From an uncultured Planctomycetota bacterium (GTDB taxonomy: Bacteria; Planctomycetota; Planctomycetia; Isosphaerales; Isosphaeraceae): a stretch of DNA of 64,000 nucleotides. Where the stretch lies: positions 896,001 to 960,000 of the forward strand of contig CAWGMQ010000006.1 of assembly GCA_963823665.1 (NCBI GenBank), in the 5' to 3' direction. Below are positions 12,921-48,632 of this stretch, piece by piece. Under the pieces are notes generated by a model. The model saw only the letters and a list, made by a program, of their open reading frames with translations, made no database searches and had not been told where the DNA came from. The number at the start of each line of letters is the position of its first letter. Position 1 is the first letter of the stretch. The position numbers and the translations under genes are program-made.

Positions 12921-14776
12921 CTACCAGGAGCCGTCGCTCTCGTTCAATCGCTGCTTCATCCTGAGCAGCAGGAACAAGCGGTACGGCACCATTTCCCCGC
13001 GGCCGTTCTTGACGAACCGATTCCAGTAATCCTCCGCGACCCTCTCGAATCTCCCCTCGGCCTGTACATCGTCGCCCATGATGACAACTAGGTTCTCCAG
13101 CGCATCCGCGATCGACACACCGTTCTGCCTGGCGACGTCGTTGTTGATGACCAGCTCATATCGCGGGTAGTGGCCGGCGAGGAAGGTGAAGAGGCCCTCC
13201 AGATTCTTGCGTTTCAACAGGTCATCCATGAACGTCTCCGCCCCACTTCCGGGCCGCCCGTCACCGTGCGAGTTCGTCTTTTCCAGGACGCGTACGGAGA
13301 AACCCCCGGCTGCGACGAAAACCGACACCGCGGGCGGCTCGAAGAACTCGAGATCGACATTCAACGTCCGGCTTTTTTCCTCGAGCGTCTCGATGATCTG
13401 ACGCGAGGTCAGCTTGCGGTCGGACCGATCCTTCAAATGGATGAGACAGGTCCCCGCGGTCGAATCGCGGTCCTCCGTCCGGAGCTCGTAACCCGCCAGT
13501 GAGGAGACCGAGGTGATCCCGTCGATGCCCCTGGCGATCGCACCCAGCTCGTGGCACCTGGCGCTCGTGTATTCGAGTGTCGAGTCCCGAGGAGTCTCGA
13601 TGACCGCATAGATCATGTCCCGGTTCTCGAGCGGAATGACCTCGAAGTTCATGCCGCGAGGGAACGCCGCCGCCTTCAGCTCCTCGAGGTCCTTCTCGAG
13701 CGCCTCGATGGCGATGGCGGCGCTCCAGCCGGGCAGAGGCTTCAGGACGATCGTCGTCGCGGGGTGCCCGTCGATGTCCGTGGAAATATCGAAGAACGGG
13801 GGCGCCATGTCCACCCGGCCGACGTCCTTGAGTCGCAGGATCTTGCCGTCGGGACTGGCCTTTAGAATGATTTTTTCCCATTGCTCGGGCTTGTTGTAGC
13901 GGCTGGGGCTGATGTGAATCAGCTCGTACTCCTTCGACTGCCACGTCTTCGTGGCCCGGTCGAGTTGCGAGGCGTCCAAGGTCGACGGCGTGAGGGCCTG
14001 GATGATGTCGTTGGACGACAGGTTGTGGGCCCGCAAGCGGTCGGGGTTCAACCGGATCCGCAGGGCGGAGCGGCGGCTGGCGAGGTTCCTGAGGACATCC
14101 ATGCCCTTGATGCGCCTGGAGAGGTTCCTGGGGATATCCATGCCCTCGATGCGCCTGAGACGGGGCATGACGACGACGTTCGCGAAGTTGACGAGATCCT
14201 TCTGGTGGGCGTCGGGGGCGGTCGAGTAGACGTTCACATACACCAGCTTGCTGTCCGGCGCGAAGATGCGGCCCGTGCTCCCGACGCCGCGGTCACCCCC
14301 GGCCTGCGGTGGCTTCTCCGCCTTCGCCGCGGCGTCCGTCCCGTCGGGCAAGGAGATTTCGATGATGAGATTCGGCAACGCCTTGAGGATCTGCGACTTG
14401 CCCACAGTGGTGACCTGGGTATGGTCGGCCGCCAGCACCTTCAGGCTCGTTATCCCTCCCAGGTGAACGAGTCCGGCATCGGTGATCCACGTACGGTCGA
14501 GCCGAAGATTCTGGAGCCGAGGTAAGCGACTCAGGTGCGCCAGGCCAGCGTCGCCAACCTTCGTGCGCGCCAGCGTCAGGTCCTCCAGGCTCGCGAGTCC
14601 CTCGAGAGATGCCAGGCCGGCGTCGCCGACCTGCGTACTCGCAAGTTCCAGCGATCGGAGCTTGGCCAGGCCCTTCAGGTGGACCAGCCCCGCATCGGTC
14701 ACCGGCGTGCGCCGCAGCGACAGGAACTCAAGGCCAGTCAGCGCTTCGAGGTGAACCAGCGCGGCATCCGTGATCG
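12921..14776 (-). pseudogene. 5'-truncated gene: leucine-rich repeats fused to RND (AcrB-like) periplasmic subdomains
   Basis: Repeats LxxLxLxxTxVxDAGLxxL followed by IRLNPDRL, ILRLKDVGRV, KNGRGEMVP. The N-terminus is replaced by the repeat cluster at 14777-14882. Confidence 0.7.
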
Positions 14777-14882
14777 GAGAAGCCAGAGAAGCCAGACACC
14801 CAATCTCTGAGGAGCCAGAGAGGAGCCAGACACCCAATCTCGAGGAGCCAGACACCCAATCTCTGGTTCCGAGGAGGAGCCA
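14777..14882 (+). repeat. Stuttered copies of the element's left-arm motif GCCAGACACCCAATCTC
   Basis: Exact copies at 14791-14807, 14825-14841 and 14847-14863, plus partial (G/A)AGCCAGAG units. Confidence 0.85.
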
Positions 14883-15025
14883 GGGAATTCAAGACACCCA
14901 TCCGTTGTCACGGCCCTCCGCATCCATTCATTCGTGGCACGCAAATTCGGTGCAAAACCACGGCCTCTGGTCATTTCGAGCACGCAGAAGGCCAGTGCCC
15001 GACGCTCGGCAAACGGTGGGTGTCT
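14883..15025 (+). repeat. Hairpin element copy E1 (right arm resumes at 17038-17044 after intron 1)
   Basis: GGGAATTCAAGACACCCATCC ... GGTGGGTGTCT^GCCATCC; core shared with E2-E5. Confidence 0.9.
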
Positions 15026-17037
15026 TTGCGTCAGGAAAAGCTCGAGAAAGGGGGAAGTGCCTCGAAACACAGAAACCTTTCATCGCGACCCTGCGGGTTA
15101 ACGAATCCCGCCCGGCAGAGCCTGGCCGGCAGCCGGAAGCAAGTCTTGCGTGGGGAGGGGTGACCCTCACTGCGAAGCGTAGACAGCGAGTCCCCATGCC
15201 ATGCTATCGAGCCCCGAAATACTCATCGTGGGAGCCTCCGTTGTAGACACAAGCGGGGGCCGCGTCGACACGCCGCAATGGCCTGGCGTGTTCGGTCCTG
15301 CCGGGGTCCAAGAACATGGCGCAGGGACGCGAGGGTTGCTCGGGAACCTGAGAGCCCCATCCGTCTCCACTGACATTTCCGGCTCGGGAACCGGAATACC
15401 AACTCCCCGGCCCACGACCCCGCGTCGGGTCGCTGGGAGCGAACAGGACGCAAGGGTGGTATCGCCACACGAAGGCAACGAAGTGCGGCGAAAGGGGCGG
15501 ATGGGAGTCGGAGCGTCTCGTAGTACCGTTGAAGCCGGGGAACCACTCCGAGGGACCCGGTGGAGGGAAGGAGACGCCATGTCACACAACCGTTGGAGGG
15601 AAACATGGCGGGTGCATCGGAACCCGTGGACGTGTCCACGAAACAACAACGGATAGCGGAACTCGCTCGGCGAAGCCCGGAGATGGGATTCACATCCCTG
15701 GGGCACTTCATCGACCTCGATTGGCTGCTCACAGCTTACTACCGGACCCGCCAAGACGGGGCGGTGGGCGTAGACGGACAAGATGGCGAGGCCTACGCAG
15801 CGAACCTGGTCCCGAACCTACGGTCGCTGCTGGAACGAGCCAAGTCCGGTACGTACCACGCACCGCCTGTGCGGCGAGTGCATATCCCCAAGGCAGGCTC
15901 AGCGACCGAAACCCGGCCACTGGGAATCCCGACCTTCGAGGATAAAGTGCTCCAGCGTGCTGTCGTGATGGTTCTGGAGGCGATATACGAGCAGGACTTC
16001 AAGAACTGCTCGCATGGCTTCCGGCCCGAGCGATCGGCACACACTGCGTCAGAGAGCCTGTGGCAACAGACGATGAACATGAAGGGCGGATGGGTAGTGG
16101 ATGTGGACATTCGTAAGTTCTTTGACACGATTGACCACGGCCATCTACGCGACTTCCTCAAGCGTCGGGTGCGAGACGGAGTGCTGCTCCGGCTCATCGG
16201 CAAATGGCTCAATGCGGGCGTCTTCGAGAACGGGTGCGTTACGCACCCCGAAATGGGGTCGCCACAAGGGGGTGTGATCAGCCCGATCCTTTCGAATATC
16301 TTCCTGCACTACGTGCTGGACGAGTGGTTCGAGCGGGAGGTTCAGCCTCGGATGATGGGCAGATCGTTCTTGATCCGCTATGCGGACGACTTCGTCATGG
16401 TCTTCTCATGCGAGTCCGACGCACGGCGTGTGATGAATGTGTTGCCCAAACGCTTTGAGAAGTACGGCTTGACCATCCACCCGGACAAGACGCGGCTGGT
16501 GCCGTTCGAGCGGCCATCGGACCGTCCCAAACCGGAAGGCGGACCCCCGCGAACTCCACCAGGGACATTCGACCTGCTGGCGTTCACGCATTACTGGGGT
16601 CGCTCCCGGCAGGGTCGCTGGGTGGTGAAGCGCAAGACGTCCAAAAGTCGATTTCGCCGAGGCCTGCGAACGTTGGCGGACTGGTGTCGCAAAAATCGAC
16701 ATCTACCGCTCAAGGTGCAGCACCGGATACTAGGTCAGAAACTGCTAGGCCACTATGCCTACTACGGAATCACCGGCAACTCCAAAATGTTGTCACGGTT
16801 TCGCAGTGGTGCCACCTGGCTCTGGCAGCACTGGCTGTCGCGCCGCGGGCGCGGCCGTCGGATGACATGGGAACGGTTCGCTCGGTTCCTGAAGCATAAA
16901 CCGCTTCCGGCAGCGATTGCGATCCACTCAGTATGCCGTCTCGTAGCGAACAAGTGACATGACGAGCCGGGTGCCTTAATTGGGCAAGCCCGGCTCTGTG
17001 GGAGCCTTGGGGGAGCGATCCCCCAAGGCGACCCGGC
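15026..17037 (+). mobile_element. Group II intron 1 (RT-encoding, no endonuclease domain)
   Basis: 5' TTGCG; DV 16964-16996 with AGC triad; DVI with bulged A ending ACCCGGC. EBS1 AGACAC (15245-15250) is complementary to 5' exon GTGTCT (15020-15025). Confidence 0.92.
15605..16957 (+). CDS. ltrA: Group II intron reverse transcriptase/maturase without En domain
   Basis: GVDG, RPLGIP, GFRP, GSPQGGVISP, RYADD, maturase HYAYYG. ATG at 15605 follows GGAGGG. Confidence 0.95.
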   Translation: MAGASEPVDVSTKQQRIAELARRSPEMGFTSLGHFIDLDWLLTAYYRTRQDGAVGVDGQDGEAYAANLVPNLRSLLERAKSGTYHAPPVRRVHIPKAGSATETRPLGIPTFEDKVLQRAVVMVLEAIYEQDFKNCSHGFRPERSAHTASESLWQQTMNMKGGWVVDVDIRKFFDTIDHGHLRDFLKRRVRDGVLLRLIGKWLNAGVFENGCVTHPEMGSPQGGVISPILSNIFLHYVLDEWFEREVQPRMMGRSFLIRYADDFVMVFSCESDARRVMNVLPKRFEKYGLTIHPDKTRLVPFERPSDRPKPEGGPPRTPPGTFDLLAFTHYWGRSRQGRWVVKRKTSKSRFRRGLRTLADWCRKNRHLPLKVQHRILGQKLLGHYAYYGITGNSKMLSRFRSGATWLWQHWLSRRGRGRRMTWERFARFLKHKPLPAAIAIHSVCRLVANK

Positions 17038-17051
17038 GCCATCCTGAGATC

Positions 17052-17070
17052 GATGGGTGTCTGCCATCCC
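17052..17070 (+). repeat. Solo right arm of the hairpin element
   Basis: gatgggtgtctgccatccc duplicates the spliced E1 right arm. Confidence 0.75.
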
Positions 17071-17781
17071 TGCGCCAAGAAGCTCGGAAAAGGAGGATCA
17101 TCTCAAATGTGAAACCTTTTAGCGGAACCCTGCGGGTAACCAATCCCGTCCGGCAGAGCCGGGCCAGCAGCCGGAAGTGAGTCTTGCGTGGGGAGAGGCG
17201 ACTCTCACTGCGAAGCGTAGACAGCGAGATCAAACGCTGTGCGATTGAGCCTCGAAATTTTCCCTCTTTGTCCTGAGCCCTCGTCCTTGTCTGACGCGGG
17301 GGCCGAGCCGGGCATTAGCGAAACCTGGACCCACTAGCGTGCCCGGTCAGACCGGGGTCGGAGAACATGGCGAATGATCAGTAGGGTTCCCCGGGAACTT
17401 GGGAGACCTTGTCGTTTCCATCGTGACGGCCGGCCGGAGCACCGGCTTACCAACTCCAGGTTGATCCACAGCTCTGTCCCGAGCTGGTGGGGACGAACAG
17501 GGGACGAACGATGGTATCGCCAAGCGAAGGAAACGAAGCGCGGCGAAATGGACGGCAAGGAGTCGGAGTGCCCCATAGTAGTGTTGAAGCGGGGGAACGG
17601 CCCTCCGGACCCTGTGGAGCGAAGGGGGCACCGCGTTGTGGATGGGAAGTTGGAACCACGCCGAGGACACCGTGCCTCACCAGCGTGTCACCGCGAAACG
17701 ACCTAGTCGTGTGAGGGACAGTGATTCCCCAACGTGACGAGCCGGATGCCTCTTCGACGGGCAAGTCCGGATCTGTGGGAA

Positions 17782-20201
17782 TCGCGAAACGAAGCTGCGG
17801 ATGAGTCTGTTATGACTGGATTTGCAACCAGGACATAACCCGATGTACGACCACCGGAACCCTACCAGGACGTGCGGCCGGAGCAATCCGACCGTGCGAA
17901 GCTCTTGGGACAACGTAACCTCACCTTCGGGTGGTTGGATATCCCGTGAGGGAATCCGGCGACTGCGAACGCCAATGCGGTCGGGGGCCAGGGGTGGATG
18001 GCATGGCTAATCCAGGTGAACTGCCGATAAACGTCGTGAGATCCAACAAGCCAAAGGCGCTGAGAGGCTTGAACCAAAAAGGTACGTGGCCAGGTACAGT
18101 GGGATTTCCCATCCCCTGTCGTCGTCATCCGAGCCACCGGCGGAGAGGCAGAGCCTAAACCATCCGTGATTCATCCGTGGAACGTGGTAAGCCCGTCGCC
18201 CTCCCTTCGGGGTAGGACCGTCGTAAGGCGTCGCCGATGGGGCGGCGGGTGGAGGATGAGGGAGCAAGCCAATGCCGTTCGGTAGTCGATCGGATAGAGG
18301 GTGAGTCCTCCCACGGACGACATCCCCTCACCGCGAAAGCGGTGCCGACTTCCCTCAGGTGTTCCGTCACGAGAGAACCTTGGCCAACCGACTCAGGGAG
18401 ACAAGCAGATATGTCGGCGGCAGAAATGCTTGCTGGTGCGGCTCCCGAGCTTACGCCCGACTGGCACTCCATCGAATGGAAGAAAGTCTGGCGCACAGTC
18501 CGTCGGCTCCAGGCGCGTATCGTGAAGGCTGTTGCGGAGGGCAGATGGAATAAGGTCAAGGCTCTGGTTTATCTGCTCACGCACTCGTTCAGTGGCCGGG
18601 CCCTGGCCATTTTGCGAGTCATCAGTAATTCGGGTGCGAAGACTCCCGGTGTGGACGGAGTTCTCTGGAACACACCGGAAGCCAAGTCGGCTGCTTTCAG
18701 CACTCTGCGTCGGCACGGTTACCAACCGCAACCGCTCCGCCGGGTGTACATTCCCAAAAGCAACGGCAAGCGACGTCCTCTCGGAATTCCCACCATGTCA
18801 GATCGAGCCATGCAGGCATTATACTTGCTAGGCCTCGATCCCATTGCGGAATCTCGAGCCGACGGCCATTCCTATGGCTTTCGGCTGGAACGTCGTTGTG
18901 CCGACGCCCTGGAACAATCTCATATTGTCTTGGGTAATCGGAGCGGTCCAGCATGGATTCTCGAAGGGGACATCAAAGCTTGCTTTGATCGCATCAGTCA
19001 TGACTGGCTCTTGACGCACGTCCCCATGGACCGGCAGTTGCTCGGGCAATGGCTGAAAGTGGGTTTCCTGGAGAAGCACGCCTGGTTCGCCACCACGGAA
19101 GGAACACCTCAAGGCGGGATCATTTCACCCGTCCTGGCGAATTGGACTCTGGATGGACTGCAACGGCTGTTGGCGGAACAGTTCGCCGAGAAGCACGGGC
19201 GACAACGGAAGTTTAAAGTCCACCTGGTCCGCTATGCGGATGACTTCTTGATCACGGGCATCTCAAAGGAACTCCTCCGTGACCAAGTGCAACCTCTCGT
19301 GGCTCATTTCTTGAAGGAACGCGGCTTGGAACTTTCCCACGAGAAAACCCAGATCACGCATGTGGAGGATGGCTTCGATTTCTTGGGGCAGAATGTGCGA
19401 CGCTATCGCTGCGGCAAGGTGTTCACCAAGCCGTCCTTGCGAAACGTGAAGACGTTCTTGAACAAGATACAGGAAACGATCGACGGCTCGGGCAGCCTAA
19501 CGGCAGGAGAGATGATCTGGCGTTTGAATCAGCAGATCAAGGGCTGGACCATGTACCACCGTTACGCGGCGAGCAAGCGCACTTTTACGTACGTGGATCA
19601 CCGGATTTTCCAGAAATTGTGGCGTTGGTGTCGACGACGGCACCAGAACAAAGGCCGGAGGTGGATCAAGGAGAAATACTTCCAGCAAGACGGTTACCGC
19701 CACTGGGTCTTCACCGGTACGCTGTTTGACCAGAAAGGCCAAGGCCGGCCGATCCAGTTGATGGAAGCAGCCAAAGTGAAGATCATTCGTTATGTGAAGA
19801 TCCGGAGCGACGTGAATCCCTACGATCCGAAGTGGGAACTGTACCTGGAAGCACGACTGGGTTGGCAACTGAGCCAAACGCTGGCAGGTCGGGGTCGGAT
19901 CGAATACTTATGGAAGGAACAAGAGGGACGATGCGTGGTCTGTGGTCAACCGCTGCGGATCGCAGAGGAAGACTTGCATCTCCACCATCGCATCTGGCGC
20001 AGCCGGGGCGGTTCTGGCACAGCCGACAACCTGGAGTTGTTGCATGCCAACTGTCATCGGCAGATCCATGTCCAAGAACGACTGACGAAAGCGGCCGCGT
20101 CCTGCGAGGGGCGTTCGTGAAGGCTTGAGCTGCATGAAGGGAAACTTTCACGTGCAGTTCTGAGGGGAGGGGGTGGCGGTAACGTCACCTCCTTACCCGG
20201 C
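17782..20201 (+). mobile_element. Group II intron 3 (chloroplast-like class, RT-X-HNH) nested in intron 2
   Basis: 5' TCGCGAAACGAAG; DV 20127-20160; DVI ending ACCCGGC. EBS1 TTCCCA (18106-18111) pairs with TGGGAA (17776-17781); EBS2 AGATCC (18039-18044) pairs with GGATCT (17769-17774). Confidence 0.92.
18411..20120 (+). CDS. ltrA: Group II intron RT/maturase with C-terminal HNH endonuclease
   Basis: [38 protein letters not shown]...HLHH...[10 protein letters not shown]. Confidence 0.96.
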
Positions 20202-20234
20202 CCCGGGGCGGGCAACCGCCCTGGGTGACCCGGC

Positions 20235-20372
20235 CCCATCCAGTTGTCACGGTCGCCCGCATCCATTCATTTGCGGCTCGCTCGTTCGGCGCAAAACCAC
20301 GGCCCCCGGTCATTTCGAACACGCAGAAGGTCAGTGCCCGACGCCCGACAAAAGGTGCGTGTGTGACATCCC
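20235..20372 (+). repeat. Hairpin element copy E2 (left arm interrupted by intron 2; right-arm target reads GTGTGT)
   Basis: cccatccagttgtcacgg...catccattcatt...ggtgcgtgtgtgacatccc. Confidence 0.88.
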
Positions 20373-20698
20373 GGATTGAGGAAGCATCGAACTGAATAGG
20401 CTGCGGGTTGGGCTGCTCTGACCTGCCTTCCCGACGCTCTGTGGAGGCACGTCATGACCGGTAAATTCTTGGCACCTCTGTTTGGGTCATTCGTTCTTTG
20501 CATTTCGCCTCCGGTTTCCGGCCAAGTGCCCACGCCAAAACCAGCAACCGCTCAGCCCGCCGCGCCGAAGGCGGTAGGTTCCCCCACGTGGTCGGCATGC
20601 AGCACGCGGATTCGACGATCCCATCGCCATCGGACGCCCCAGGCCGTATAATCCGAGTGAGATCGCGTCTTCTCGCGTACCCAGACGGAGCATATACC

Positions 20699-21001
20699 AT
20701 GGAGATTCCGGTGCTCGTTGAGCCCGTGGCCGGGAACGGCTATCGCGCCCACGGGAATTCGCCTCTGGCGCTCAGCGCGGAAGGCAGCACACCCGACGAG
20801 GCGTTAGCGAAGTTCCGGGAGCTGCTCTCGACTCACCTGGCCGGCGGCGCCCGGATCGTTTCGGTCGAGGTTCCTTCGACAAAACATCCCCTGGCGCGTT
20901 TTGCAGGCACGCTCCAGCGCGATGATCCACTCGTCCAGTCCTGGAAGGAAGAGATGGCCGAATACCGTAAGCAAGTGGAAGCCGACGCCGATTACCTATG
21001 A
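20699..21001 (+). CDS. Putative antitoxin (HicB-like N-terminus)
   Basis: MEIPVLVEP..NGYRA...AEGSTPDEAL; overlaps the start of a PIN remnant. Confidence 0.65.
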   Translation: MEIPVLVEPVAGNGYRAHGNSPLALSAEGSTPDEALAKFRELLSTHLAGGARIVSVEVPSTKHPLARFAGTLQRDDPLVQSWKEEMAEYRKQVEADADYL

Positions 21002-21179
21002 ACCCGCTCGTGCTCGACACCGATATGTTGACGCTCTACCGAGAAGGCGACTCCAAGTAGCGAAAATGGACCTGCGCATCGCCGCGATTGTCCTGCACTC
21101 CGACGGTATCTTGATCACGCGCAACCAGCGGGATTTTGGGCGCATTCCGGGGTTGAGGATTGAAGACTGGAGTAGATAG
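20998..21179 (+). pseudogene. VapC/PIN toxin with internal deletion
   Basis: N-terminal VLDTD joined out of frame to C-terminal MDLRIAAI...LITRNQRDF..IPGLRIEDW. Confidence 0.75.
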
Positions 21180-21224
21180 CGGTCAGATGAGATTCAGGAT
21201 GTCCAACCGGTCAGACCCTCCAAG

Positions 21225-21376
21225 GAGGAATCCAGGCACCGATCCTTTGTCTCACGGCCTCCGCATCCATTCATTCGCGGCTCGCTCGTTCGGTGCAAAA
21301 CCACGGCCTCTGGTCATTTCGAACACGCAGAAGGCCAGTGCCCGACGCTCGGCAAACGGTGGGTGTCTGACATCCC
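21225..21376 (+). repeat. Hairpin element copy E3, intron-free
   Basis: gaggaatccaggcaccgatcc ... ggtgggtgtctgacatccc; intact GTGTCT target at 21363-21368. Confidence 0.9.
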
Positions 21377-21379
21377 CTC

Positions 21380-21630
21380 GTTTCCGGCAAGTCGTCGCCG
21401 AGGTCCAAACACTCTACGTACGCTTCCGCCAGGGGGCGGGCAACGTACGAGGCGAGCGTGAAGGGCCTTCCTCCGGAGATGTCCGGCACGGACGCCGAGT
21501 CGTAGCGATCCCAAACGGCGTTGCGGATGCCTCCCGGGTCGTGAGGTCCCGGCGGGAAAAGATCGACCAGCAGCACATGGCAGCCAAGACGAAGCGCCGA
21601 GTCAATCTTGTCCACGAACTCTTCCACCGA
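21380..21630 (-). pseudogene. Internal fragment of a DUF4058-like protein
   Basis: LGCHVLLVDLFPPGPHDP..I..AVW...LASY...AYVE...GDDLPE, cut at E3. Confidence 0.55.
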
Positions 21631-21698
21631 TGAGTCGCGATCTTTATTTGCGGGCGAAACGACCTCCAGGATGGCAACGATTTGATTCCGGCTGGTAT

Positions 21699-21779
21699 CA
21701 GGAATGCCCGGCGGAAACCGTCGGAGATGCAGTGGTACCAGCGCGTTTTGGACAAGTCGTCGAGGTGGGTGCGAGCCAT
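21699..21779 (-). pseudogene. N-terminal remnant of a REP-associated/IS200-like tyrosine (HUH) transposase
   Basis: MARTHLDDLSKTRWYHCISDGFRRAFL resembles the YHCISRCVRRAFL motif. Confidence 0.6.
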
Positions 21780-21969
21780 CGTAAGCAGTGTGTCTCCCAG
21801 GCGATTTTTACGGTTCCACCTTTGCATTCAAACGGGGCCGCAATTACAATTGTCGGCGTTAGTGCGGTCGCCACGCCGCGAACGAACTGGCTCACGTTTT
21901 TCGCCGCTCTGCTGCGACGTTCAGGATCGCTTCGCTCGTGATCGGCAGTCAGCCTGGAGGAGCATCGTC

Positions 21970-23736
21970 GTGGCACGAACTTCCCGAGTGCGAAAAATTG
22001 CGGACATTGAGCTGCTCGAAGGCAGACTGCTCCTCTCCGGAGGCGGTCGTCAGTCGCCCGCACTCGCCCGCTTGCCCGCCTCTCCGACCGTCGCGCCGGA
22101 GTCCGCGCTGACAATCCCCGGAAGCTTCAACGCCAGTGCAACGGGGGCGGCGACGACGGTCACATTTACGTTCAAAGGAAAATACAAGATTTCGGAGTTC
22201 GCGCTCGCGGTGACGCCGAGCTCGGTAATCGCGGCTGTTCCCGTCGTTCTCAACAAGAATGCACAGCCGACGAGCGGCGTTGCCAGCGTGACGGTGACTC
22301 AATTGACGGCCACGGCACTCTTGCATTTCCAGTCCTACCGGCAGCTTCATATCACGATGTTGCCGAAAACGGCTGCGCCCGCGGGCACAATCACCGAGCA
22401 ATTCCTCGCCGCCGATCAACACGCGCTGACGACGCTCGACAACGCCTATCAAGCAGTCGAGTCTGCTGTGCCGGGGACGATCTCATCCTTGATTTCGCCC
22501 AGTTACGAACCGCCCGGCTCAACCACAGTGGGGCCAATCCCGGGAACGACGATGTTTCAACAAATCGCCGCGTTACAGGCGAATCTGAGTCAGCTTCAGA
22601 ATTACGTCGCGCAGGCGGCCGCTGGCGTGCCGGTGATACTGGGAACCGATCGTCATACTCCGATCAAGTTGACGGAGAAGTCGCTTGCGCTTTCGGACCG
22701 GATCCTAATGGCGGAGATTACCGGCGCGGAATCGTCTCCAGCCGAGGCTCGTGTGGAAGACGCGGGCACCAGCAATCCATTCGGCGACATTGCTGTTGCG
22801 CTCGGCAAACTGGCGCCGGCGCTTTCCGGCGCGGCCGCCACGTTCACCGCGATAGGGCTTGGAACAGGCGAATCGGTTCTGCTGCTTGGCGGAGCGGCTT
22901 TATTAAATGTGGCGCTGGTGGCAACCGCGGGACTGGTTTTCGGAGGCGCAATTCTGGTGGTGGCCGGCGGAATTGATCTGGCGCTGGCCGGAAACCCCAC
23001 CACGGCGCAGCTCACGAACCAGTCGCCTGCCGAGATGGCAGCCGCGGCCCAGAACCAGGTTCCTTACACCGCTGCACTGGGATTGGAGCAAAGCGCGATC
23101 CCCTACAACGATGTCAAATCCGCGGACGCCGGCCAGGTCGTGCTTGGCGTCATGGACGATGGGACAGCCGTCTATGAATCCGCCTTCGGCTCGTCGGATT
23201 TGGAACAGTCCGGCGCGAAGGTGACGATCACGAATGTTAACGCGGTGATCGACAGCGAGACCGAGGAGCTCGCGCAAATACTGGGCCTGAATCCGAACTA
23301 TGGTCCCGGCGAAGGGCAAGGCTCTGGCGGCTCGGGATCGGGCGGCGCCGGCGGGGGACAGACAGGCGGTCCGATATCGGGAAGCCTGAGCGGAACATAC
23401 ACGGGGACCGTTGCCGACACGAGCGGTCAAATATTTACTTCCTCGGTCACCGCGAGCAATATCAGCACAGCCGATGGTGAAATTTCCGGGACTGTGACAT
23501 TTGCGCAATACCCATTTGTGCAGGACGACGTGGTAGCGAGCACCGTCCCGGACATCCCGGCGACTCTCTCCGGGTTTTTTACGTCTGAGGGCAGTGCGGG
23601 CGGAGAATTCGTCATCCATCTTTCTGGTGGCGATGCCCCGCTATCGTGGAGCGGCACCGTGACGTCCTCCGGGATCGTGATCAATCTCACAGCCAGCGAT
23701 GGTTCGAGCGCAGGCACAATCAATCTTCAACCGTGA
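21970..23736 (+). CDS. Secreted/surface protein with planctomycete LExRxLLS motif
   Basis: ELLEGRLLLS near the N-terminus; GGAGG before a GTG start; hydrophobic Gly/Ala central segment; Gly/Ser linker. Confidence 0.7.
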   Translation: MARTSRVRKIADIELLEGRLLLSGGGRQSPALARLPASPTVAPESALTIPGSFNASATGAATTVTFTFKGKYKISEFALAVTPSSVIAAVPVVLNKNAQPTSGVASVTVTQLTATALLHFQSYRQLHITMLPKTAAPAGTITEQFLAADQHALTTLDNAYQAVESAVPGTISSLISPSYEPPGSTTVGPIPGTTMFQQIAALQANLSQLQNYVAQAAAGVPVILGTDRHTPIKLTEKSLALSDRILMAEITGAESSPAEARVEDAGTSNPFGDIAVALGKLAPALSGAAATFTAIGLGTGESVLLLGGAALLNVALVATAGLVFGGAILVVAGGIDLALAGNPTTAQLTNQSPAEMAAAAQNQVPYTAALGLEQSAIPYNDVKSADAGQVVLGVMDDGTAVYESAFGSSDLEQSGAKVTITNVNAVIDSETEELAQILGLNPNYGPGEGQGSGGSGSGGAGGGQTGGPISGSLSGTYTGTVADTSGQIFTSSVTASNISTADGEISGTVTFAQYPFVQDDVVASTVPDIPATLSGFFTSEGSAGGEFVIHLSGGDAPLSWSGTVTSSGIVINLTASDGSSAGTINLQP

Positions 23737-23751
23737 CCGACGGATAGCGAG

Positions 23752-24053
23752 TCACGGCCCAATCGACTTGGCTTTCGGGCTAATCTTGAACGTCGTATTG
23801 CCCGTCAAGAAGAATGCACCCGACGCATCGGTGATGCCCGAGGGTGCCAAGGCGTTGACCTTCAGCTCGCCTCCGTTTGCGAAGCTCTGTTTACCGGTGA
23901 GGATCGTCACACTGCTCGAACCGGCGGTGTAGCTGACCTGGACGGGGATGGGGCTTGTGACCGTCTTCTTCTTGTGTTTCGACTTCACCAGCACGGTGTA
24001 GTTGCCCGCATTGTCGGCAGCCGTGGGGTCTAGCGCCTCGTTGAAGGTGAGCG
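23752..24053 (-). pseudogene. C-terminal fragment of a surface protein (Ig-like), truncated at E4
   Basis: LTFNEALDPTAADNAGNY...VSY...VTI; no native start before the element. Confidence 0.55.
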
Positions 24054-24196
24054 GGGATTCCAGACACCCATCCTTTGTCTCACGGCCTCCACATCCATTC
24101 ATTCGCGGCTCGCTCGTTCGGCGCAAAACCACGGCCTCTGGTCAAGTCGAACACGCAGAAGGCCAGTGCCCGATGCTCGGCAAACGGTGGGTGTCT
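24054..24196 (+). repeat. Hairpin element copy E4 (right arm resumes at 24929-24935)
   Basis: GGGATTCCAGACACCCATCC ... GGTGGGTGTCT^GGCATCC. Confidence 0.9.
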
Positions 24197-24928
24197 TTGC
24201 GTCAGGAAAGCTCGAGAAAGGAGGAAGTGCCTCGAAACACAGAAACCTTTCATCGCGACCCTGCGGGTTAACGAATCCCGCCCGGCAGAGCCTGGCCGGC
24301 AGCCGGAAGCAAGTCTTGCGTGGGGAGGGGTGACCCTCACTGCGAAGCGTAGACAGCGAGTCTCCATGCCATGCTATCGAGCCCCGAAATACTCATCGTG
24401 GGAGCCTCCGTTGTAGACACAAGCGGGGGCCGTGTCGACACGCCGCAATGGCCTGGCGTGTTCGGTCCTGCCGGGGTCCAAGAACATGGCGCAGGGACGC
24501 GAGGGTTGCTCGGGAACCTGAGAGCCCCATCCGTCTCCACTGACATTTCCGGCTCGGGAACCGGAATACCAACTCCCCGGCCCACGACCCCGCGTCGGGT
24601 CGCTGGGAGCGAACAAGACGCAAGGGTGGTATCGCCAAACGAAGGCAACGAAGTGCGGCGAAATGGGCGGACGGGAGTCGGAGTGCTCCGTAGTAGCAGT
24701 GAAGCGGGGGAATGGGCCCTCCCAGACCCTGTGGAGCGAAGGGGGTACCGTGTCGCGGACTGGAAGCCGGAACCACGCCGAGGGCATTGGACCTCAGAGC
24801 GCGTCACCGCGAGGCGACCAGATCGTGTGAGGGACAGCGACGCCGCGACATGACGAGCCGGATGCCTTAATTGGGCACGTCCGGATCAGTGGGAGCCCTG
24901 GCGGAGCGATCCGCCAGGGCGACCCGGC
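24197..24928 (+). mobile_element. ORF-less group II intron copy A (732 nt)
   Basis: 5' TTGCG; EBS1 AGACAC at 24415-24420; DV GAGCCGGATGCC..ACGTCCGGATC; DVI ending ACCCGGC; no RT ORF. Confidence 0.92.
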
Positions 24929-25236
24929 GGCATCCGTGAGCGCCGTCCCAGGGACCAAGTCCGAAGGAAGGGCGGCAGGAAGCCGCCCCTCACCTCACCT
25001 TCGGGATTGGTACTAATGCGCTAAATCGTTCCACTCAATCGTTTCTCCACCAGTAGCTAACGACGCAATCCGGGAATTCCAGTTCACGCTGAACTATTAC
25101 AGGTGCCATTATGGCGCCCAGGGAGTGTCGCTCCGCCGCCGGCTCGTCTATGGCTACGGGAACGGCTCAGTTTCCGACCATGACCGGCGCGATTTGAAGT
25201 ACGCGGCACGGGATGGAAGCCCGCTTGAGGGAGTAG

Positions 25237-26172
25237 ATGATGTCTCTCGCGATAAGACCGTTAGGCGAAGCGGACCTAGACAACGCCGATCGCATCCTCC
25301 GCCTAGCTTTCAATCAGTTCCTTGGTCTCAAGCCACCGACTGACTTTTTTGGCGACTCCGACTACGTTCGAACCAGGTGGCGCACGGCACCAACAGCAGC
25401 TATCGGAGCCTATCTTGATGGTGAGTTGGTTGGGTCCAACTTTCTCACGCGCTGGGGGAGTTTCGGTTTCTTCGGCCCATTGTCAGTGCATCCAGACCGG
25501 TGGGGCGAGCGTATCGCCTCGGGCCTTCTTGAGGCGACAGTTGGAATGTTTACCGATTGGAAAACTGAGGTAGAGGGGCTTTTCACATTCGCGCAGAGCC
25601 CTAGCCACATTCGACTCTATCAAAGATACGGTTTCTGGCCTCGCTACCTAACGATGATCATGAGCAGGCCCGTCGATTCAGCGATCTCCGTGGCAAAGCC
25701 CGCGTTTGAATTAAGTATGAATGACTCCCCGGGTGTTAGAGAGCTGCGCGAATTGATGGAGGAAATTCATCCGGGGTTGGACCTTGAGCGCGAGATTATC
25801 TCCGTTCGAGAACAATCGCTGGGCCAGGCTGTCACGATCCGAGATGAGGGGCTCCTTGGGGGTATAGCGGTTTGCCATGTAGGGCCGAAGACGGAGGCCG
25901 GTGGTGACGCATGTTATGTAAAATTTGGCGGGGTTCGCCCTGGCTTTGGGTCGGGGCCCCGGTTCGACCGCCTTGTCGACGCATGCGACGCAATTGCCAG
26001 CCACAATGGTGTCAGCCGTTTGATTCTCGGAGTAAATGCAGCTTGCTGCCCTGCATACCGCAGACTTCTAGAACGGGGATTCCGCACTGAACTGCAGGGG
26101 ATAGCCATGCATAGAAACGATCTACCAGGCTATTTTCGCTCTGAATCATACGTCGTCTGCGATTGGCGATAG
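25237..26172 (+). CDS. GNAT-family N-acetyltransferase (tandem GNAT)
   Basis: IRPL.EADL, FFGPLSVHPDRWG.RIASGLL, LYQRYGF, YRRLLERGFR. Confidence 0.85.
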   Translation: MMSLAIRPLGEADLDNADRILRLAFNQFLGLKPPTDFFGDSDYVRTRWRTAPTAAIGAYLDGELVGSNFLTRWGSFGFFGPLSVHPDRWGERIASGLLEATVGMFTDWKTEVEGLFTFAQSPSHIRLYQRYGFWPRYLTMIMSRPVDSAISVAKPAFELSMNDSPGVRELRELMEEIHPGLDLEREIISVREQSLGQAVTIRDEGLLGGIAVCHVGPKTEAGGDACYVKFGGVRPGFGSGPRFDRLVDACDAIASHNGVSRLILGVNAACCPAYRRLLERGFRTELQGIAMHRNDLPGYFRSESYVVCDWR

Positions 26173-26310
26173 CAACCCTTGAGTACGTAATTTTCGATCG
26201 CGCATTTGCGTTAAACGAGATAATTCTGCTTCCGAGGAATTTAACGAATTGCGGTATTGGAAGCTAGGAGCTTGGGCGGATCTAATCGGCAATAACTGGG
26301 GGGCATCCTA

Positions 26311-26500
26311 TTGGAAGACTCAAAGAAGACCAAGAAGCAGTTGTTAGCGGAATTGGAATTGACTCGGCGTACGAACGCATCTTTGGAGGCCGCAATTAGC
26401 GAACTTCGAAAGAGGCAAAGTTTTGCGGAGGCACGCTATCGGAACCTGTTCAATAATGCCGATGACGGACTTTTCCAAACCAGTCCAGATGGGGTTTCCA
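26311..26500 (+). pseudogene. N-terminal fragment of a PAS-domain sensor protein, truncated at E5
   Basis: KTKKQLLAEL coiled coil, then EARYRNLFNNADDGLFQTSPDG, then element sequence. Confidence 0.75.
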
Positions 26501-26644
26501 GAGGTTTCCAGACACCCATCCTTTGTCCCACGGCCCCCGCATCCATTCATTCGCGGCTCGCACGCTCGGCGGAAAACCACGGCCTCTGGTCAATTCGAAC
26601 ACGCAGAAGGCGAGTGCCCGACGCTCGGCAAACGGTGGGTGTCT
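26501..26644 (+). repeat. Hairpin element copy E5 (right arm resumes at 27377-27384)
   Basis: GAGGTTTCCAGACACCCATCC ... GGTGGGTGTCT^GGCATCCC; preceded by a 10-nt stutter of GGTTTCCAGA. Confidence 0.9.
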
Positions 26645-27376
26645 TTGCGTCAGGAAAGCTCGAGAAAGGAGGAAGTGCCTCGAAACACAGAAACCTTTCA
26701 TCGCGACCCTGCGGGTTAACGAATCCCGCCCGGCAGAGCCTGGCCGGCAGCCGGAAGCAAGTCTTGCGTGGGGAGGGGTGACCCTCACTGCGAAGCGTAG
26801 ACAGCGAGTCTCCATGCCATGCTATCGAGCCCCGAAATACTCATCGTGGGAGCCTCCGTTGTAGACACAAGCGGGGGCCGTGTCGACACGCCGCAATGGC
26901 CTGGCGTGTTCGGTCCTGCCGGGGTCCAAGAACATGGCGCAGGGACGCGAGGGTTGCTCGGGAACCTGAGAGCCCCATCCGTCTCCACTGACATTTCCGG
27001 CTCGGGAACCGGAATACCAACTCCCCGGCCCACGACCCCGCGTCGGGTCGCTGGGAGCGAACAAGACGCAAGGGTGGTATCGCCAAACGAAGGCAACGAA
27101 GTGCGGCGAAATGGGCGGACGGGAGTCGGAGTGCTCCGTAGTAGCAGTGAAGCGGGGGAATGGGCCCTCCCAGACCCTGTGGAGCGAAGGGGGTACCGTG
27201 TCGCGGACTGGAAGCCGGAACCACGCCGAGGGCATTGGACCTCAGAGCGCGTCACCGCGAGGCGACCAGATCGTGTGAGGGACAGCGACGCCGCGACATG
27301 ACGAGCCGGATGCCTTAATTGGGCACGTCCGGATCAGTGGGAGCCCTGGCGGAGCGATCCGCCAGGGCGACCCGGC
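26645..27376 (+). mobile_element. ORF-less group II intron copy B (732 nt), apparently identical to copy A
   Basis: Constant offset of 2448 from copy A; the incidental ORF translations are identical; EBS1 at 26863-26868. Confidence 0.92.
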
Positions 27377-27455
27377 GGCATCCCGTGTTACGATCGGAAC
27401 AACCGTAGAATGTTGCCAGTCTCGTCGTCATCGACGCCGGTTGGAGAACGACATC

Positions 27456-28076
27456 ATGCCGGATGAGTCTCATGAGCAATCGGGCGGCACGGAGGCGGCC
27501 GCGCGGCGACTGAACGTCGGCGACGCGCTCATTCTCGTTGCGGCACTCGGTCTGGGGATTTCGGGCATTCGTGATCGCATCCGAACCTTTTCCCCGCGGG
27601 CCGTTGCCTGGAGGCAGGAGTATACGACGTTCCGAAACGACCTGGCCAGCGTGCCAGCGATCAGCCAGGATGAGGCTGACTTCGCTTTTCGCTCCCTGGT
27701 CGTCCAGGTCTCCGACGAGTGCCAGGCTTGGTTTCTCGGCATGCTCGTGGGATTGACTCCCGCGCAGATCTTGCTGCGGCTGCGCCGGCCACGGCCGGAA
27801 TGGCAGTCCCTGTTGCGCCAGCCTGGTTTCGTGGCCTGCTCCGCCGCGCTCATCGGTTACCTGATCGATCAGGGGTGGGACCGGTCGATCCAGTTGGGGT
27901 TCGCGAGGTTTCCCTTCTGGACATCATTGGCACCCTTGATCGTCTGGGCAATCTTGCTTCTTGTACGGCGGTGCCGGGCGGAAAAGAGCTGGATCGACCG
28001 GCTGGGCCGCGTGCTCGGCGCCTGCTGGATCGTCGCGGGTTTCTGGTCGCAGCTCGAACAGTACTATTTCTGGTAG
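27456..28076 (+). CDS. Hypothetical membrane protein
   Basis: Several TM segments; LRLRRPRP...QPG and SWIDRLGR motifs. Confidence 0.7.
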   Translation: MPDESHEQSGGTEAAARRLNVGDALILVAALGLGISGIRDRIRTFSPRAVAWRQEYTTFRNDLASVPAISQDEADFAFRSLVVQVSDECQAWFLGMLVGLTPAQILLRLRRPRPEWQSLLRQPGFVACSAALIGYLIDQGWDRSIQLGFARFPFWTSLAPLIVWAILLLVRRCRAEKSWIDRLGRVLGACWIVAGFWSQLEQYYFW

Positions 28077-28125
28077 GCTGGCGGATCGCCCGCCAAAAGG
28101 TCAGAAACTGTCAGCGCTGACCGCT

Positions 28126-29178
28126 TCACCGGAGCTCCTCGTGCCGAGTGCCCACCAGGTTCGCATGGTAATCGAGACTCTTCACGAAGCGCACCGAACC
28201 GTTGCAGAACAGCACGTGCGCACCGCCGGGATGATAGCTGCTGGCATTCGTGATATCGGAATGGTCGGCGTCTCGCAGAAAACACCCGGTGCAAATATAA
28301 CGGCACTGATTGAACACGAACCGGGGTGAGTTCGGTGGTACGATCGTATTGAAGAGCGTCATCGATTCAGCGCCCCACGACCAGTACCGGCCGCGGTCGC
28401 CGGTGAAAATGTTGGCGGCGGCGACTGGGGCGTTGAAGGCATCGTGGCATGCCTGAAGGTTTTGCATCAACTGATCGGGATATCGTTCGGCGGTCGCGGT
28501 ATCGGGATCGGCGAAGTGCGTTCCGACGTTGACGACGCCGTTGCCTCGGTACCGGCGCGGCTGCAAGCTTCCCGAAAGCCCCTCGGCGAATGCGATGGTA
28601 TTCGCCTCGCCATCGGTGATGTCGCTCGACCGGCACAACGACTGGTATCCAAAGACTCCCGTCGGCCGATGCGACATCGACTGGATCGTCGTGCCGGTGC
28701 TGGCGTAGTAGTTGTTCAAGCCGGGCCGGCCAGCGTAGAGGTCGTTCGGACACAGAAAAATGGAGACCCGCGTTTCGGTGGCCGTCGTGTTAAACGCCGC
28801 TTCCTGTGCATTGGCGTGCGGCTCGAAGTCGAAGTTGATCGAGTTATAAAGTGGTGTCTGGTCGAGATACTGAAGCAAAACGGCCTGTGCGCTCCAACCG
28901 CTCCAATCGGTCGGCTGGCCTTGCGTTCTGACCCCCTCGTTCATTGCGGCGCTGAATGTATTGAACGACGCGGTCACGCCCAGCGGGTAAGAACCGTGGG
29001 TCGTCTGGTAACTGTGCAGTGCTTGGGCAATTTGCTTGAGGTTGCTGACACACAAGGCCCGCCGGCTGGCATCGCGTGCCCTGAGGACGGCCGCCATCCC
29101 GATCATGGCGACCACGCCGATTACCATCAAGAGGCCGAAGAGGTCGTGCAAGGAAAAACCGCGCCGTGTGGTTCGCAT
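28126..29178 (-). CDS. DUF1559 (prepilin-like/SBP_bac_10) protein, C-terminus frameshifted
   Basis: RRGFSL, CVSNLKQI, LYNSINF, FLCP, SYHPGGAHVLFCNGSVRFVK. Confidence 0.85.
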   Translation of the reverse strand: MRTTRRGFSLHDLFGLLMVIGVVAMIGMAAVLRARDASRRALCVSNLKQIAQALHSYQTTHGSYPLGVTASFNTFSAAMNEGVRTQGQPTDWSGWSAQAVLLQYLDQTPLYNSINFDFEPHANAQEAAFNTTATETRVSIFLCPNDLYAGRPGLNNYYASTGTTIQSMSHRPTGVFGYQSLCRSSDITDGEANTIAFAEGLSGSLQPRRYRGNGVVNVGTHFADPDTATAERYPDQLMQNLQACHDAFNAPVAAANIFTGDRGRYWSWGAESMTLFNTIVPPNSPRFVFNQCRYICTGCFLRDADHSDITNASSYHPGGAHVLFCNGSVRFVKSLDYHANLVGTRHEELR

Positions 29179-29392
29179 GGCAACCCCCTTATCCCGATCA
29201 CCAGCTCGGATCCGGTTACGTGAGCCTCGAGCCCACCGGGCCGCGAGCCTCGTCTAGAGTCGCCTATCGCGGAGCGAAAGCCGACATAGAAACCCCGCGG
29301 GCGTTGACCGCCGCCACCCTCAACTGTAACCTCCTCCTGAACCATGCCAATAGTTGCAATATGAGCAACGACAAACTAATCGCGTCCCTGTT

Positions 29393-30768: not shown

Positions 30769-30812
30769 GGGACGGAAACTGGGACGCACGGGGACGGAAA
30801 CTGGGACGCACG
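30769..30812 (+). repeat. Perfect 22-bp tandem repeat GGGACGGAAACTGGGACGCACG x2 (REP-like end)
   Basis: Seen directly; lies 42 nt upstream of a transposase remnant. Confidence 0.85.
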
Positions 30813-30854
30813 TAGTATTGACGGGAGCCCTCAGTTCTGTGAGCAAATGTTGTC

Positions 30855-30995
30855 ATGCCAAGAACAGCGAGGGTAGCAGCTTGGGGCTTTGTCTATCACG
30901 TCCTGAACCGATCCGTCGGCAGGATGCACATGTTCCGCAAGGAGTCCGACTTCGAGGCGTTCGAGCGTGTCATGGTTGAAGCTCACCTGCGGCAA
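30855..30995 (+). pseudogene. N-terminal remnant of a REP-associated tyrosine transposase (IS200-like)
   Basis: MPRTAR....GFVYHVLNRSVGRMHMFRKESDFEAF. Confidence 0.8.
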
Positions 30996-31322
30996 CGTCC
31001 TCGCCAACGAGATCGCTGGTCACAAGGCGGAGCGGCGGCCGAGGGCCGGAGAAGAATGGCTTGCCGCGACCAAGTACGATGGGGTGGATGTAAAGTCGAT
31101 GCTCATCAATAAGACCAAAGTTGGTTAGGCTTCCTGCCAAGTCTGGTCCGGCAACTTCAATCTCCCCAACTGGCTGTGCCTTCAGCCCACGTATCACCGC
31201 CTCGATGTCATCCTCGACAAGTGTGGCGTTGGGTCCGACCGACTTCAACGTGCGCGACACAACCCACTTCGGCTGGCTCCGCCACGCCGCCGCGAAGTCG
31301 TGTTCCTCCGCGCCCCAACGCC
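30996..31322 (-). pseudogene. Fragment of a dihydrofolate reductase/RibD C-terminal family protein
   Basis: PKWVVSRTL...AGPDLA....GLIDEHRLYIHPIVLGRGKPFF. Confidence 0.8.
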
Positions 31323-32227: not shown

Positions 32228-32918
32228 GAAAAGCTCGCAAGACAGAACGGGGATAGGCCGTGTAGTCGGACACAGGCTCGACAACGACGCCGCGCCATAG
32301 TATAGGCAGTTGGATTGCGCCGGCGAAGAGGGTGGTGACTCATGCCCCGTCCGAGGGCGTTCCGGGAACTTCGACTGCTCAACGGCTCAACCGGCGACCC
32401 GTGTCTGCTCGTCGACGATCAGGGCAAGGAATTAGACCGAGTGCATGTGAGCATCGAAAGAGGACGACCATGCAAGACGTTACTGGTCCACATCGAAGAT
32501 CGCGGCGTGTCTTGCCCGCTTCCTGAGGTTGATTCTGATCTGATCTGATCTGATCCGATCTGCGAGCATCTGCGTCGAACTGCGGACCAAACTCCTGGTC
32601 CCACGTTCTTCCACACGCGATTCGATCCGCCGGCAGCGTTCACCGCAAATCCCTTCACCGGCCCTGGACTCGCTCCCCTCCCATCTCGTTTCGTGTGTTT
32701 CGCGTATTTCGTGGTTCAAAGCTGTTCCTCTCGATCGGTGCACACCAGCCAGCAGCCTGGGATCGCTCCGTGGTCTGGCTGATCCTCAACAACCCCGCCA
32801 ACACGACGGTGCAGCGTGTTTCCGGCGACTGCGCTGTGGCGATCGGTTGTGATCCGGACCCCAATCGGTTACGATGATCGCCCCACTGACAGTTGTCGAT
32901 GGTGCGAGATCGTGATCG

Positions 32919-37000: not shown

Positions 37001-37012
37001 AGTCGGGAGAGG

Positions 37013-45786: not shown

Positions 45787-46336
45787 CGACTGGCTCCTTG
45801 GACGTCGCTGTCGTCCGGGCGGAAATGGGGCGGCAGGGCTGGCATCATAATACGCCAACGCCGAGCGCGCTGGGCGTCGATGTGTGCATTATACACGCTG
45901 AGAGTGTGGATTCGCATCTCGGTGCGTTAGACGTAACTCGGCGCCGGTGAGTTCGGAGGGGTGGTCGGATGTGTGCCGCTCACGACTGGCGAGTGATATT
46001 GCATACTCGCAGAAGCAACCCAATCTGGGGCGATTCGGGGAGCGGCAGGACGGCGCGTTGATCGGGGTCGGGATCGGTTTTCTCTGCGCGTCGCTTCACC
46101 GAAAGCGATTTTTCGGTTCCTGACACCTTATTCGGTTCCGTTGCAGGCCCAGTTCCCGCACTGCATAATGCTGAACTAGGGAACACATGGGCAGCGTGAC
46201 GTACCTCGCATGGTTCCGAGGCCCGCGTATGACGAGGCTTCGTGGCCGGCGATGGTAAAACATCGCGCGGACCATCGCAGCGCGGATTTTTGGTGTGATC
46301 GCGTGAGTGCACATTATAGTTTGTGAGTACTCACTC

Positions 46337-48121: not shown

Positions 48122-48632
48122 AATATAGGCGGACCGCGGATCCCACACAGGCGCTCAAACCGAACGCGGCCTCTTCTCCTCCGCCTGCTCGAGTCGCGGT
48201 CGAGCTGATGAAGGAACAGGCCGGGGGACGATCGGGCGGATCAATGAGCGATCCCTCTCAAGCTGAACTGCGGCGAGGCCGTGCATCCGGTTTCTGTCTC
48301 CGAATGATGGCACGGTCGGGTAAATCACGCGGGTGTTTTCGTTATCGCTCCGTTGGCTTGGCGTCTTTATCCCAGAAAAACCAGTTCCATATGCTGCGAC
48401 GGGTTTCTGAGCTCCGGAGGGATTCTCAAAAATCGCGAATGGCTCGAACGCGCCAGCGTCGGGCGCTGTTCTTTGTGACGAAATCCTTAAACCACGGAAC
48501 TCACGGAATGACACGGAAGTCGAGCAACGATTCGACGCCTAGGAGAACTGATGACACATTGGTTTCCGTGTGGTGCCGTGCAATCCGTCGTTCAGTGAAT
48601 TATCGCGGCTCGTGCTTCAAGTTTGGGCGCGT

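Follow-up and report, generated by a model that had tools for sequence, protein, structure and literature searches.

Mini-element array in a planctomycete genome as the probable non-autonomous partner of a HUH/Y1 transposase family

We examined a 64,000-nucleotide window (the whole stretch of DNA) from an uncultured Planctomycetota bacterium, which carries five copies of a ∼150-bp repeat with inverted arms, here called the mini-element. Based on sequence comparison, the mini-element is best read as the non-autonomous partner of elements encoding a 409- to 420-amino-acid (aa) HUH/Y1 transposase, in a doublet of the TIRtron type. We consider it probable that one-ended joining driven by this transposase builds the arrays and that group II introns home into them separately. 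The feature is real and belongs to the TIRtron/REPIN kind, as a variant; the general TIRtron layout is already in print in the available text of Di Nocera et al. (2013, PMC3733652). The genome holding the window (G000; window on contig C6) is 16.46 Mb and 92% complete, and a congeneric genome (G001) is 84% complete.

The mini-element and its transposase partner

The mini-element consists of two inverted repeats around a conserved spacer. The consensus of 63 full-length copies had a mean identity of 83% and imperfect ∼28-bp terminal repeats (short flanks included). In the genome, 128 matches to the arm pattern were found, against none when the pattern was reversed as a control, and 51 to the core pattern, against 3 for its control; BLAST with the repeat gave at least 43 matches with 40 of 100 candidates scored. 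In the DNA compared, which was chosen around known hits, G000 has at least 62 sites, 49 of them within 15 kb of another, compared with 6.4 expected if uniform (maximum, 21 in 2,000 trials). Neighbors less than 15 kb apart were co-oriented in 30 of 35 pairs in G000 and in 17 of 18 in G001 (total, 47 same and 6 opposite). For clusters more than 15 kb apart, a hand count that either passed over mixed clusters or gave them the orientation of their full-length copies showed agreement in 17 of 26 pairs (P = 0.08). Eighteen of 49 two-ended copies were stuttered or had an adjacent arm piece. The comparison with this genome and its relatives that the first-pass annotation had proposed for the intact copy thus showed a repeat that is clustered and locally co-oriented genome-wide and that is also present in G001. 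Its idea of a gene-capture array held with respect to clustering but not as a dedicated cassette array, because the repeat is dispersed and 13 of 27 loci in G000 are solitary. No copy was found in twenty grid windows (400 kb), and among 60 relatives only G001 and, weakly, G008 had a match. The host resembles a planctomycete, as DUF1559 and DUF1501 genes were found and related element copies occur in records labeled Isosphaeraceae. A literature search that left out subscription papers and figure content found no paper on the repeat or its core motif.

The copies had also been described as hairpin elements. The arms stand, but the element is not a strong hairpin: single-strand folds were no better than shuffles, both for the intact copy E3 (z, -1.13 and -0.78) and for the truncated copy E2 (z, +0.94 and +0.56). 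Across 20 copies, the longest consensus helix was a terminal stem of ∼11 bp, and only 2 of 31 predicted pairs had a compensatory change. Given this weak covariation and the lack of an Rfam match on the element, we rejected a structured RNA as the nature of the repeat. A coding origin of the interior was rejected as well: open frames exist, but beyond the arms neither the autonomous element nor any of 50 metagenome loci showed similarity.

Two other forms of the repeat were seen. A second mini-element type with the same arm core, another interior, and its own intron insertions lies on G000 contig C3 (L047 8100-9600 and L041 11900-15700). Partial mini-elements, one of which truncates a classical Y1 gene, precede duplicated low-complexity open reading frames (ORFs) on contig C8 (L053 6000-14200; ∼1761-1769 kb); the C-terminal part of these ORFs is presumably Hint-like.

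G000 has 11 matches to PF01797 (Pfam Y1), some flanked by a different terminal inverted repeat (TIR) and one truncated by a mini-element copy; none is flanked by the arms, and classical REP-associated tyrosine transposases (RAYTs) were therefore rejected as the partner. Tyrosine recombinases (20 matches) were rejected too, with only short fragments near two clusters. In a pattern scan of the species genomes, the arm core lay beside a longer Y1 protein in at least 7 loci (80 of 100 stretches), and a protein search with the latter returned a multicopy clade of 409 to 420 aa that the Pfam scan had overlooked. In G000 and G001, these transposase genes have the arm core ∼230 nt upstream and 310 to 330 nt downstream, in the orientation of the mini-element, forming an IS-like autonomous element of ∼1.75 kb whose ends are stuttered as in the mini-element. 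The TIRs common to both are CAGACACCCA on the left and TGGGTGTCTG on the right, closing in a short C/G run. The same layout recurs among 50 metagenome homologs on unrelated contigs, of which those with enough flank were scored (core background, 8 of 780 windows): the upstream core had the left orientation in 18 of 31 and the reversed one in 0 of 31, and the downstream core had the right orientation in 16 of 30 and the reversed one in 1 of 30. A sister transposase clade in the same genomes lacks these arms. We regard the link between element and transposase as well supported by these comparisons. The linkage to a HUH or RAYT gene suggested in the first-pass annotation is therefore upheld for a HUH/Y1 partner with the same arms elsewhere in the genome and not for a classical single-copy RAYT. 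That annotation had also named a match to the ends of a known IS or miniature element as evidence against its own proposal, and the arms do match the ends of an IS-like element.

The 409-aa protein has the motif NHLH at 75-78 and Tyr at 189 (Y189), with ∼111 aa between the catalytic motifs NH.H and YVDLNP, which fits a transposase like TnpA-Y1 subclass 2.3; its match to NCBIfam REP_Tyr_transpos (E = 3e-8) is below the cut-off. Many copies are broken. Others are 97 to 100% identical at different G001 loci, and such near-identical copies indicate recent activity.

Joints at the arm termini and the array in the window

We tested 266 termini whose outer flank was clean, counting those of mini-elements, autonomous elements, and arms split by introns; an arm-less homolog existed for 71 of them. 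Homology started ≤6 nt from the terminus in 27 of the 71, compared with 5 of 160 control points, and 24 of these 27 joints fell at -1 to +2 of the terminus. The breakpoints at the arms that the first-pass annotation had looked to are found, and precise joints at termini appear well supported by these alignments. Many joints have 1 to 4 nt of microhomology. Of 83 element blocks, 9 had homologs for both flanks, and an empty site could be reconstructed from none of these.

The window array comprises five mini-element copies, all on the + strand (E1, 14883; E2, 20235; E3, 21225; E4, 24053; E5, 26501), with a mean column identity of 82% in the alignment. Four carry a group II intron and E3 is intron-free; both the co-orientation and the intron count had been reported correctly. 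The features are as follows.

14777..14882, +: extra stuttered left-arm pieces of the GAGCCAGACACCC family before E1, truncating the N-terminus of an LRR/AcrB-like ORF (12921-14855, -)
14883..15025, +: E1, up to the right-arm intron insertion point directly after GGGTGTCT
15026..17037, +: full-length lineage-A group II intron; reverse transcriptase (RT)/maturase ORF ∼15605-16957 without HNH; exon-binding site 1 (EBS1) loop AGACAC
17038..17070, -: reversed stuttered left terminal repeat of the autonomous Y1 type, like the upstream TIRs of loci L263 and L272
17071..20234 (17071-17781 and 20202-20234), +: lineage-B ORF-less group II intron in the left arm of E2, split by I3; EBS1 loop TGTCTG
17782..20201, +: intron I3, nested as a twintron in the host intron's 3' hairpin region; RT, GIIM, and HNH ORF within 18237-20120
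20235..20371, +: E2, beginning at the intron 3' end with the outer left arm lost; right terminus joined to cargo
20372..21224, +: module 1; antitoxin-like ORF 20699-21001 and internally deleted VapC/PIN remnant 20998-21179
21225..21376, +: E3, intact, without intron, ∼152 bp, imperfect ∼28-bp TIRs
21377..24052, both strands: module 2, in the four parts that follow
21382-21627, -: module 2, gene fragment cut by E3
∼21654-21779, -: module 2, remnant of another 2.3-type transposase start
ending at 23736, +: module 2, ORF of 582 to 593 aa of no known family
23752-24051, -: module 2, C-terminal fragment truncated by E4
24053..24196, +: E4 as far as the intron site, with the rest of the arm at 24929-24935
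24197..24928, +: lineage-A ORF-less intron (732 nt) in E4, identical to the E5 intron and to three copies elsewhere in the genome
24936..26500, +: module 3; 165-bp piece, GNAT gene 25237-26172, and fragment 26311-26490 truncated by E5
26501..26644, +: E5 as far as the intron site, with a left-end stutter of 10 nt (26491-26500) and the rest of the arm at 27377-27384
26645..27376, +: lineage-A ORF-less intron (732 nt) in E5
27400..29188, strand not assigned: module flanking the array, with 97% identity to G001; its start is found again next to a mini-element on G000 contig C3

Unrelated modules between the copies, as first described, are present after E2, but the gap from E1 to E2 consists of introns and a 33-nt arm piece. 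The toxin-antitoxin (TA) pair survives as an antitoxin-like ORF with a toxin gene ∼230 bp shorter than its G001 copy. The GNAT gene and the supposed PAS fragment are not separate modules, since both lie within 24936-26500, in which a Pfam search gave no PAS domain. Several joints can be followed here. At the right end of E2, 44 bp present in G001 are deleted at the joint to cargo; the right end of E4 adjoins a 165-bp piece whose upstream neighbor differs in G001 and in soil contigs; and the terminus of autonomous type at 17070 runs directly into nt 2 of intron B (joint offset, +1 relative to intact intron B). The stuttered prefix at 14777..14882 also precedes four other G000 copies on contig C11. 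No contig from the sequencing runs (4 of 15 runs) spans the stretch, and apparent joints between element copies in these contigs are accounted for by the repeat itself. Outside the array, the window contains an IS110-family transposase ORF above the NCBIfam cut-off (480 aa; 8290-9732) and a ∼750-bp repeat (∼49318-50076) with many copies in G000 (72 to 86% identity) and in G001.

Based on these joints, we propose the following sequence of events. The transposase, acting in trans, would cut single-stranded DNA at the foot of a terminus, and that one end would be joined to a new target, largely irrespective of its sequence. Stutters would result if the target lay within a sister copy, while a nearby one would give adjacent deletions and duplications and a distant one would splice in unrelated DNA. 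Repeated local events on one strand could then yield co-oriented clusters with shuffled modules, with selection retaining mostly whole genes and intron copies supplying extra substrates for homologous recombination. Such one-ended strand transfer by a HUH enzyme, which we infer from the joints, would be in line with the capture proposed in the available text of Ton-Hoang et al. (PMC3333891).

It is important to note that a number of observations weigh against this reading. In the remaining 44 of 71 termini, homology begins later (40) or earlier (4); of the 27 precise joints, five enter another mini-element copy and several enter transposase or intron DNA; and module 3 has an internal junction (25101/25102) away from any arm. 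The compared DNA, ∼2.3 Mb of G000 and G001, was mostly picked around known copies. Local GC skew tended to track element orientation, but its sign changes are too frequent to permit a strand test. The interior of the mini-element has no relation to the autonomous element, no autonomous copy among those seen has arms identical to the mini-element beyond the core, and the window has no intact partner transposase gene. The transposase itself has no Pfam match, only a match of E = 0.3 to a solved transposase, and a fold prediction of low confidence (pLDDT, 40). Further, catalysis by the transposase and true cassette mobility are deduced, no cleavage, circle, or movement having been observed.

The alternative that survives best, although we judge it unlikely, is that the mini-element is a relic of these transposons whose present-day shuffling requires no transposase. 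The joints and clusters would then come from template switching during replication, at the base of the terminal stem, together with RecA recombination between the many 150-bp repeats and 0.7- to 2-kb intron repeats. The microhomology at many joints and the many broken transposase copies fit this view. So does the first intron of the window (15026-17037), which has a mini-element 5' exon and an autonomous-type 3' exon, a mismatch expected from recombination of two intron copies and one indicating that such recombination contributed. However, homologous recombination cannot link a terminus to non-homologous DNA, as in the 24 joints at -1 to +2; the whole element folds no better than shuffles; and the near-identical transposase copies in G001 speak for recent activity.

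Like a classical IS, the repeat has terminal inverted repeats, is dispersed, and shows deletions next to it. These traits would fit an ordinary MITE (a miniature transposable element with inverted repeats) of a DDE IS that accumulates where DNA is dispensable and whose target duplications are removed by neighboring deletions. Among 31 unstuttered copies, direct repeats of ≥4 nt occurred in 12.9%, compared with 7.5% in shuffled sequence, and this is within the shuffled 95th percentile (16%). The genes found between these TIRs are HUH/Y1 (the search for a DDE partner was not exhaustive), and we regard a DDE origin as very improbable.

The cargo is mixed. The 42 modules in eight arrays contain 0 to 8 predicted genes each, on both strands. 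A coding frame was open at the module boundary in only 5 of the 42, compared with 127 of 150 random cuts, under a coding-frame model that misses short or atypical fragments such as window 26311-26490. Among 61 predicted proteins scanned were PIN and Xre TA genes, enzymes, kinase-ECF sets, and a ribosomal L19 gene, the last indicating that resident genes are also enclosed; this gene (L032 16219-17364) has a long C-terminal extension (381 aa) and lies inside an element array.

While syntenic core DNA of G000 and G001 is 77 to 88% identical, several arm-adjacent modules of 0.7 to 1.9 kb are 96.7 to 97.6% identical and located in different arrays; module 1, for instance, has a 97% identical counterpart in G001 that is bounded by elements. 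By a hand count, roughly half of the segments shared at ≥93% end within ∼50 nt of an arm. The high identity relative to core DNA suggests recent exchange, with bulk transfer of larger islands as a possible alternative source. One G001 array is tied to the G000 array on C11 by an 80% anchor. We rejected the window array as a strict ortholog of any one array in G001 because the core genes of the window map to G001 contig C4 (3.59 Mb) and the shared modules to contig C5 (3.37-3.43 Mb).

Pieces of a second repeat family (window 30769-30996 and 32426-32470) surround a 1.1-kb module 93% identical to G001, and one piece matches the region where a classical Y1/RAYT gene on C4 begins. The logic of arm joints may apply to other Y1 families too. 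Repeats of TTCCTGACACC (window 37010-37036, 46106-46138, and 48632-48714) resemble TIRs of other Y1 genes in G000, G001, and G008.

Group II introns on the arms

Lineage-A introns occupy the right arm of E1, E4, and E5. The left arm of E2 holds an intron of lineage B, which is in turn split by an HNH-encoding intron. Lineage A inserts directly after GGGTGTCT, with 18 of 18 5' ends at the arm site, and lineage B directly after CAGACA on the opposite strand of the same core, with 11 of 15 5' ends there (the window copy is among the four exceptions). The EBS1 loops, AGACAC in A and TGTCTG in B, lie in homologous stems, and each is complementary to its own site. These two related lineages target, as judged from loop and site, opposite strands of the arm core, and the specialized introns foreseen in the first-pass annotation are borne out. 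Other intron 5' ends were also located at the A site. In the G000 DNA compared, lineage A comprises six RT-bearing copies (96 to 100% protein identity) and 10 ORF-less copies (98.6 to 100% identical), the latter consistent with recent homing in trans. At least these two lineages would retrohome into mini-element arms and full-length TIRs; the pairing is shown and mobility is read from copies that are 99 to 100% identical. Rfam gave five intron domain-I regions and one intron 3' end in the window (D1-D4-6 and D1-D4-7 only).

The HNH-encoding intron uses one site common to lineage-A and lineage-B introns, giving near-identical twintrons; I3 copies 99 to 100% identical lie in lineage-A hosts on G000 contigs C11 (∼558.7k), C3 (∼191.9k), and C6 (∼1321k). 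Two ORF-less lineage-A introns lie head to tail at G000:C10:1458537-1460043.

For the attC-targeting group IIC (IIC-attC) introns, cassette formation by reverse transcription or trans-splicing has been proposed. An analogous process, in which introns drive cassette formation here from arm-to-arm transcripts, would agree with the introns in four of five window copies and with the expansion of lineage A, yet we give it very little credence: termini without an intron have precise joints, which lie where the arm ends instead of at the splice site, and G001 has arrays although no lineage-A intron was seen in the G001 DNA compared.

Relation to known systems and meaning

In integron attC arrays, co-oriented palindromic sites lie between accessory genes and introns occur at the sites. 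A cluster of attC sites lacking integron integrases (CALIN), with divergent attC, a tyrosine recombinase, and attC-type introns, hardly enters into consideration here: the clustering of imperfect palindromes in one orientation (47 of 53 adjacent pairs), the mostly closed frames at module boundaries, and the TA and GNAT cargo resemble one, but, as the first-pass annotation had noted for the window, attC cores and integrase are missing (R''/R' boxes RYYYAAC ... GTTRRRY in 0 of 63 full-length copies on both strands; TIGR02249 matches in G000 and G001 all under the cut-off, the best reaching 112.6 of 265 bits), the joints are at the outer terminus, the cargo is often multigene, lies on both strands, and includes ribosomal L19 instead of single co-oriented cassette genes, and the arms are common to Y1 transposase ends. 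The introns differ accordingly from IIC-attC introns, since their targets are TIR cores paired by a 6-nt EBS1 and not sites beside an attC hairpin.

The closest relatives are Y1 systems. In TIRtrons, a Y1 transposase gene (TIRYT) lies between TIRs that also occur as dispersed dimers and clusters, and GGGGWSAS is present in some TIRs only, the others being unrelated, according to the available text of PMC3733652. The Y1 gene bounded by TIRs and the dispersed TIR family with dimers and clusters are shared here; the core, in contrast, is GGGTGTCTG and not GGGGWSAS, the interior is fixed at ∼100 bp, and shuffled cargo, one-sided joints, and introns are not described in the text of PMC3733652. Subclass 2.3 of TnpA-Y1 was described as without identifiable REP-like flanking structure in the sections consulted of Quentin et al. 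(2018, PMC6006769). Our transposase resembles that subclass, as portrayed there, in NH.H/YVDLNP, a HUH-Y spacing of ∼110 aa, a long C-terminal tail, and several copies per genome, whereas one clade here has a conserved, oriented terminal repeat and a non-autonomous partner. For REPINs and bacterial interspersed mosaic elements (BIMEs) with RAYT, capture of flanking genes or fragments has been proposed, as the part of PMC3333891 at hand relates, and the inverted doublet with a spacer, mostly extragenic position, and tandem amplification given there are similar. Unlike in those systems, inspection of the 63-copy consensus gave no GTAG/CGTC-tagged hairpin in the arms, the transposase is multicopy and appears to move with its ends, and cargo shuffling is extensive. 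The first-pass suggestion of an undescribed REPIN-like array thus stands for the HUH/Y1 partner but not as a classical RAYT with GTAG REPs, nor as undescribed, the TIRtron layout being in print. Finally, RmInt2 homes into the inverted repeats of ISRm17, and the passages available of PMC4615759 indicate the same combination of an endonuclease-less group II intron, IS inverted repeats, two sites per element, and head-to-tail copies; in our case the host is a HUH/Y1 element with its mini-element, and of two sister lineages one reads one strand of the arm and the other its complement.

A more far-reaching view, which we put forward tentatively and consider rather doubtful, is a HUH-driven functional analogue of integrons, in which mini-element termini would be portable joining sites for whole accessory genes in long-lived arrays, arm-bounded modules would move within and between planctomycete species, and a guild of introns would be retargeted to both strands.

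The mini-element provides a candidate DNA substrate for a widespread HUH/Y1 subclass that had been described as without identifiable flanking structure, making this subclass directly testable in vitro. The joints add quantified genomic evidence for the capture of genes and fragments at Y1-element ends, earlier proposed for REP/BIME in the available text of PMC3333891. The arms also host sister introns whose EBS1 appears switched to the complementary strand of one target. Together with the modules, these ends point to one route by which accessory DNA may be remodeled in a 16-Mb planctomycete-like genome.

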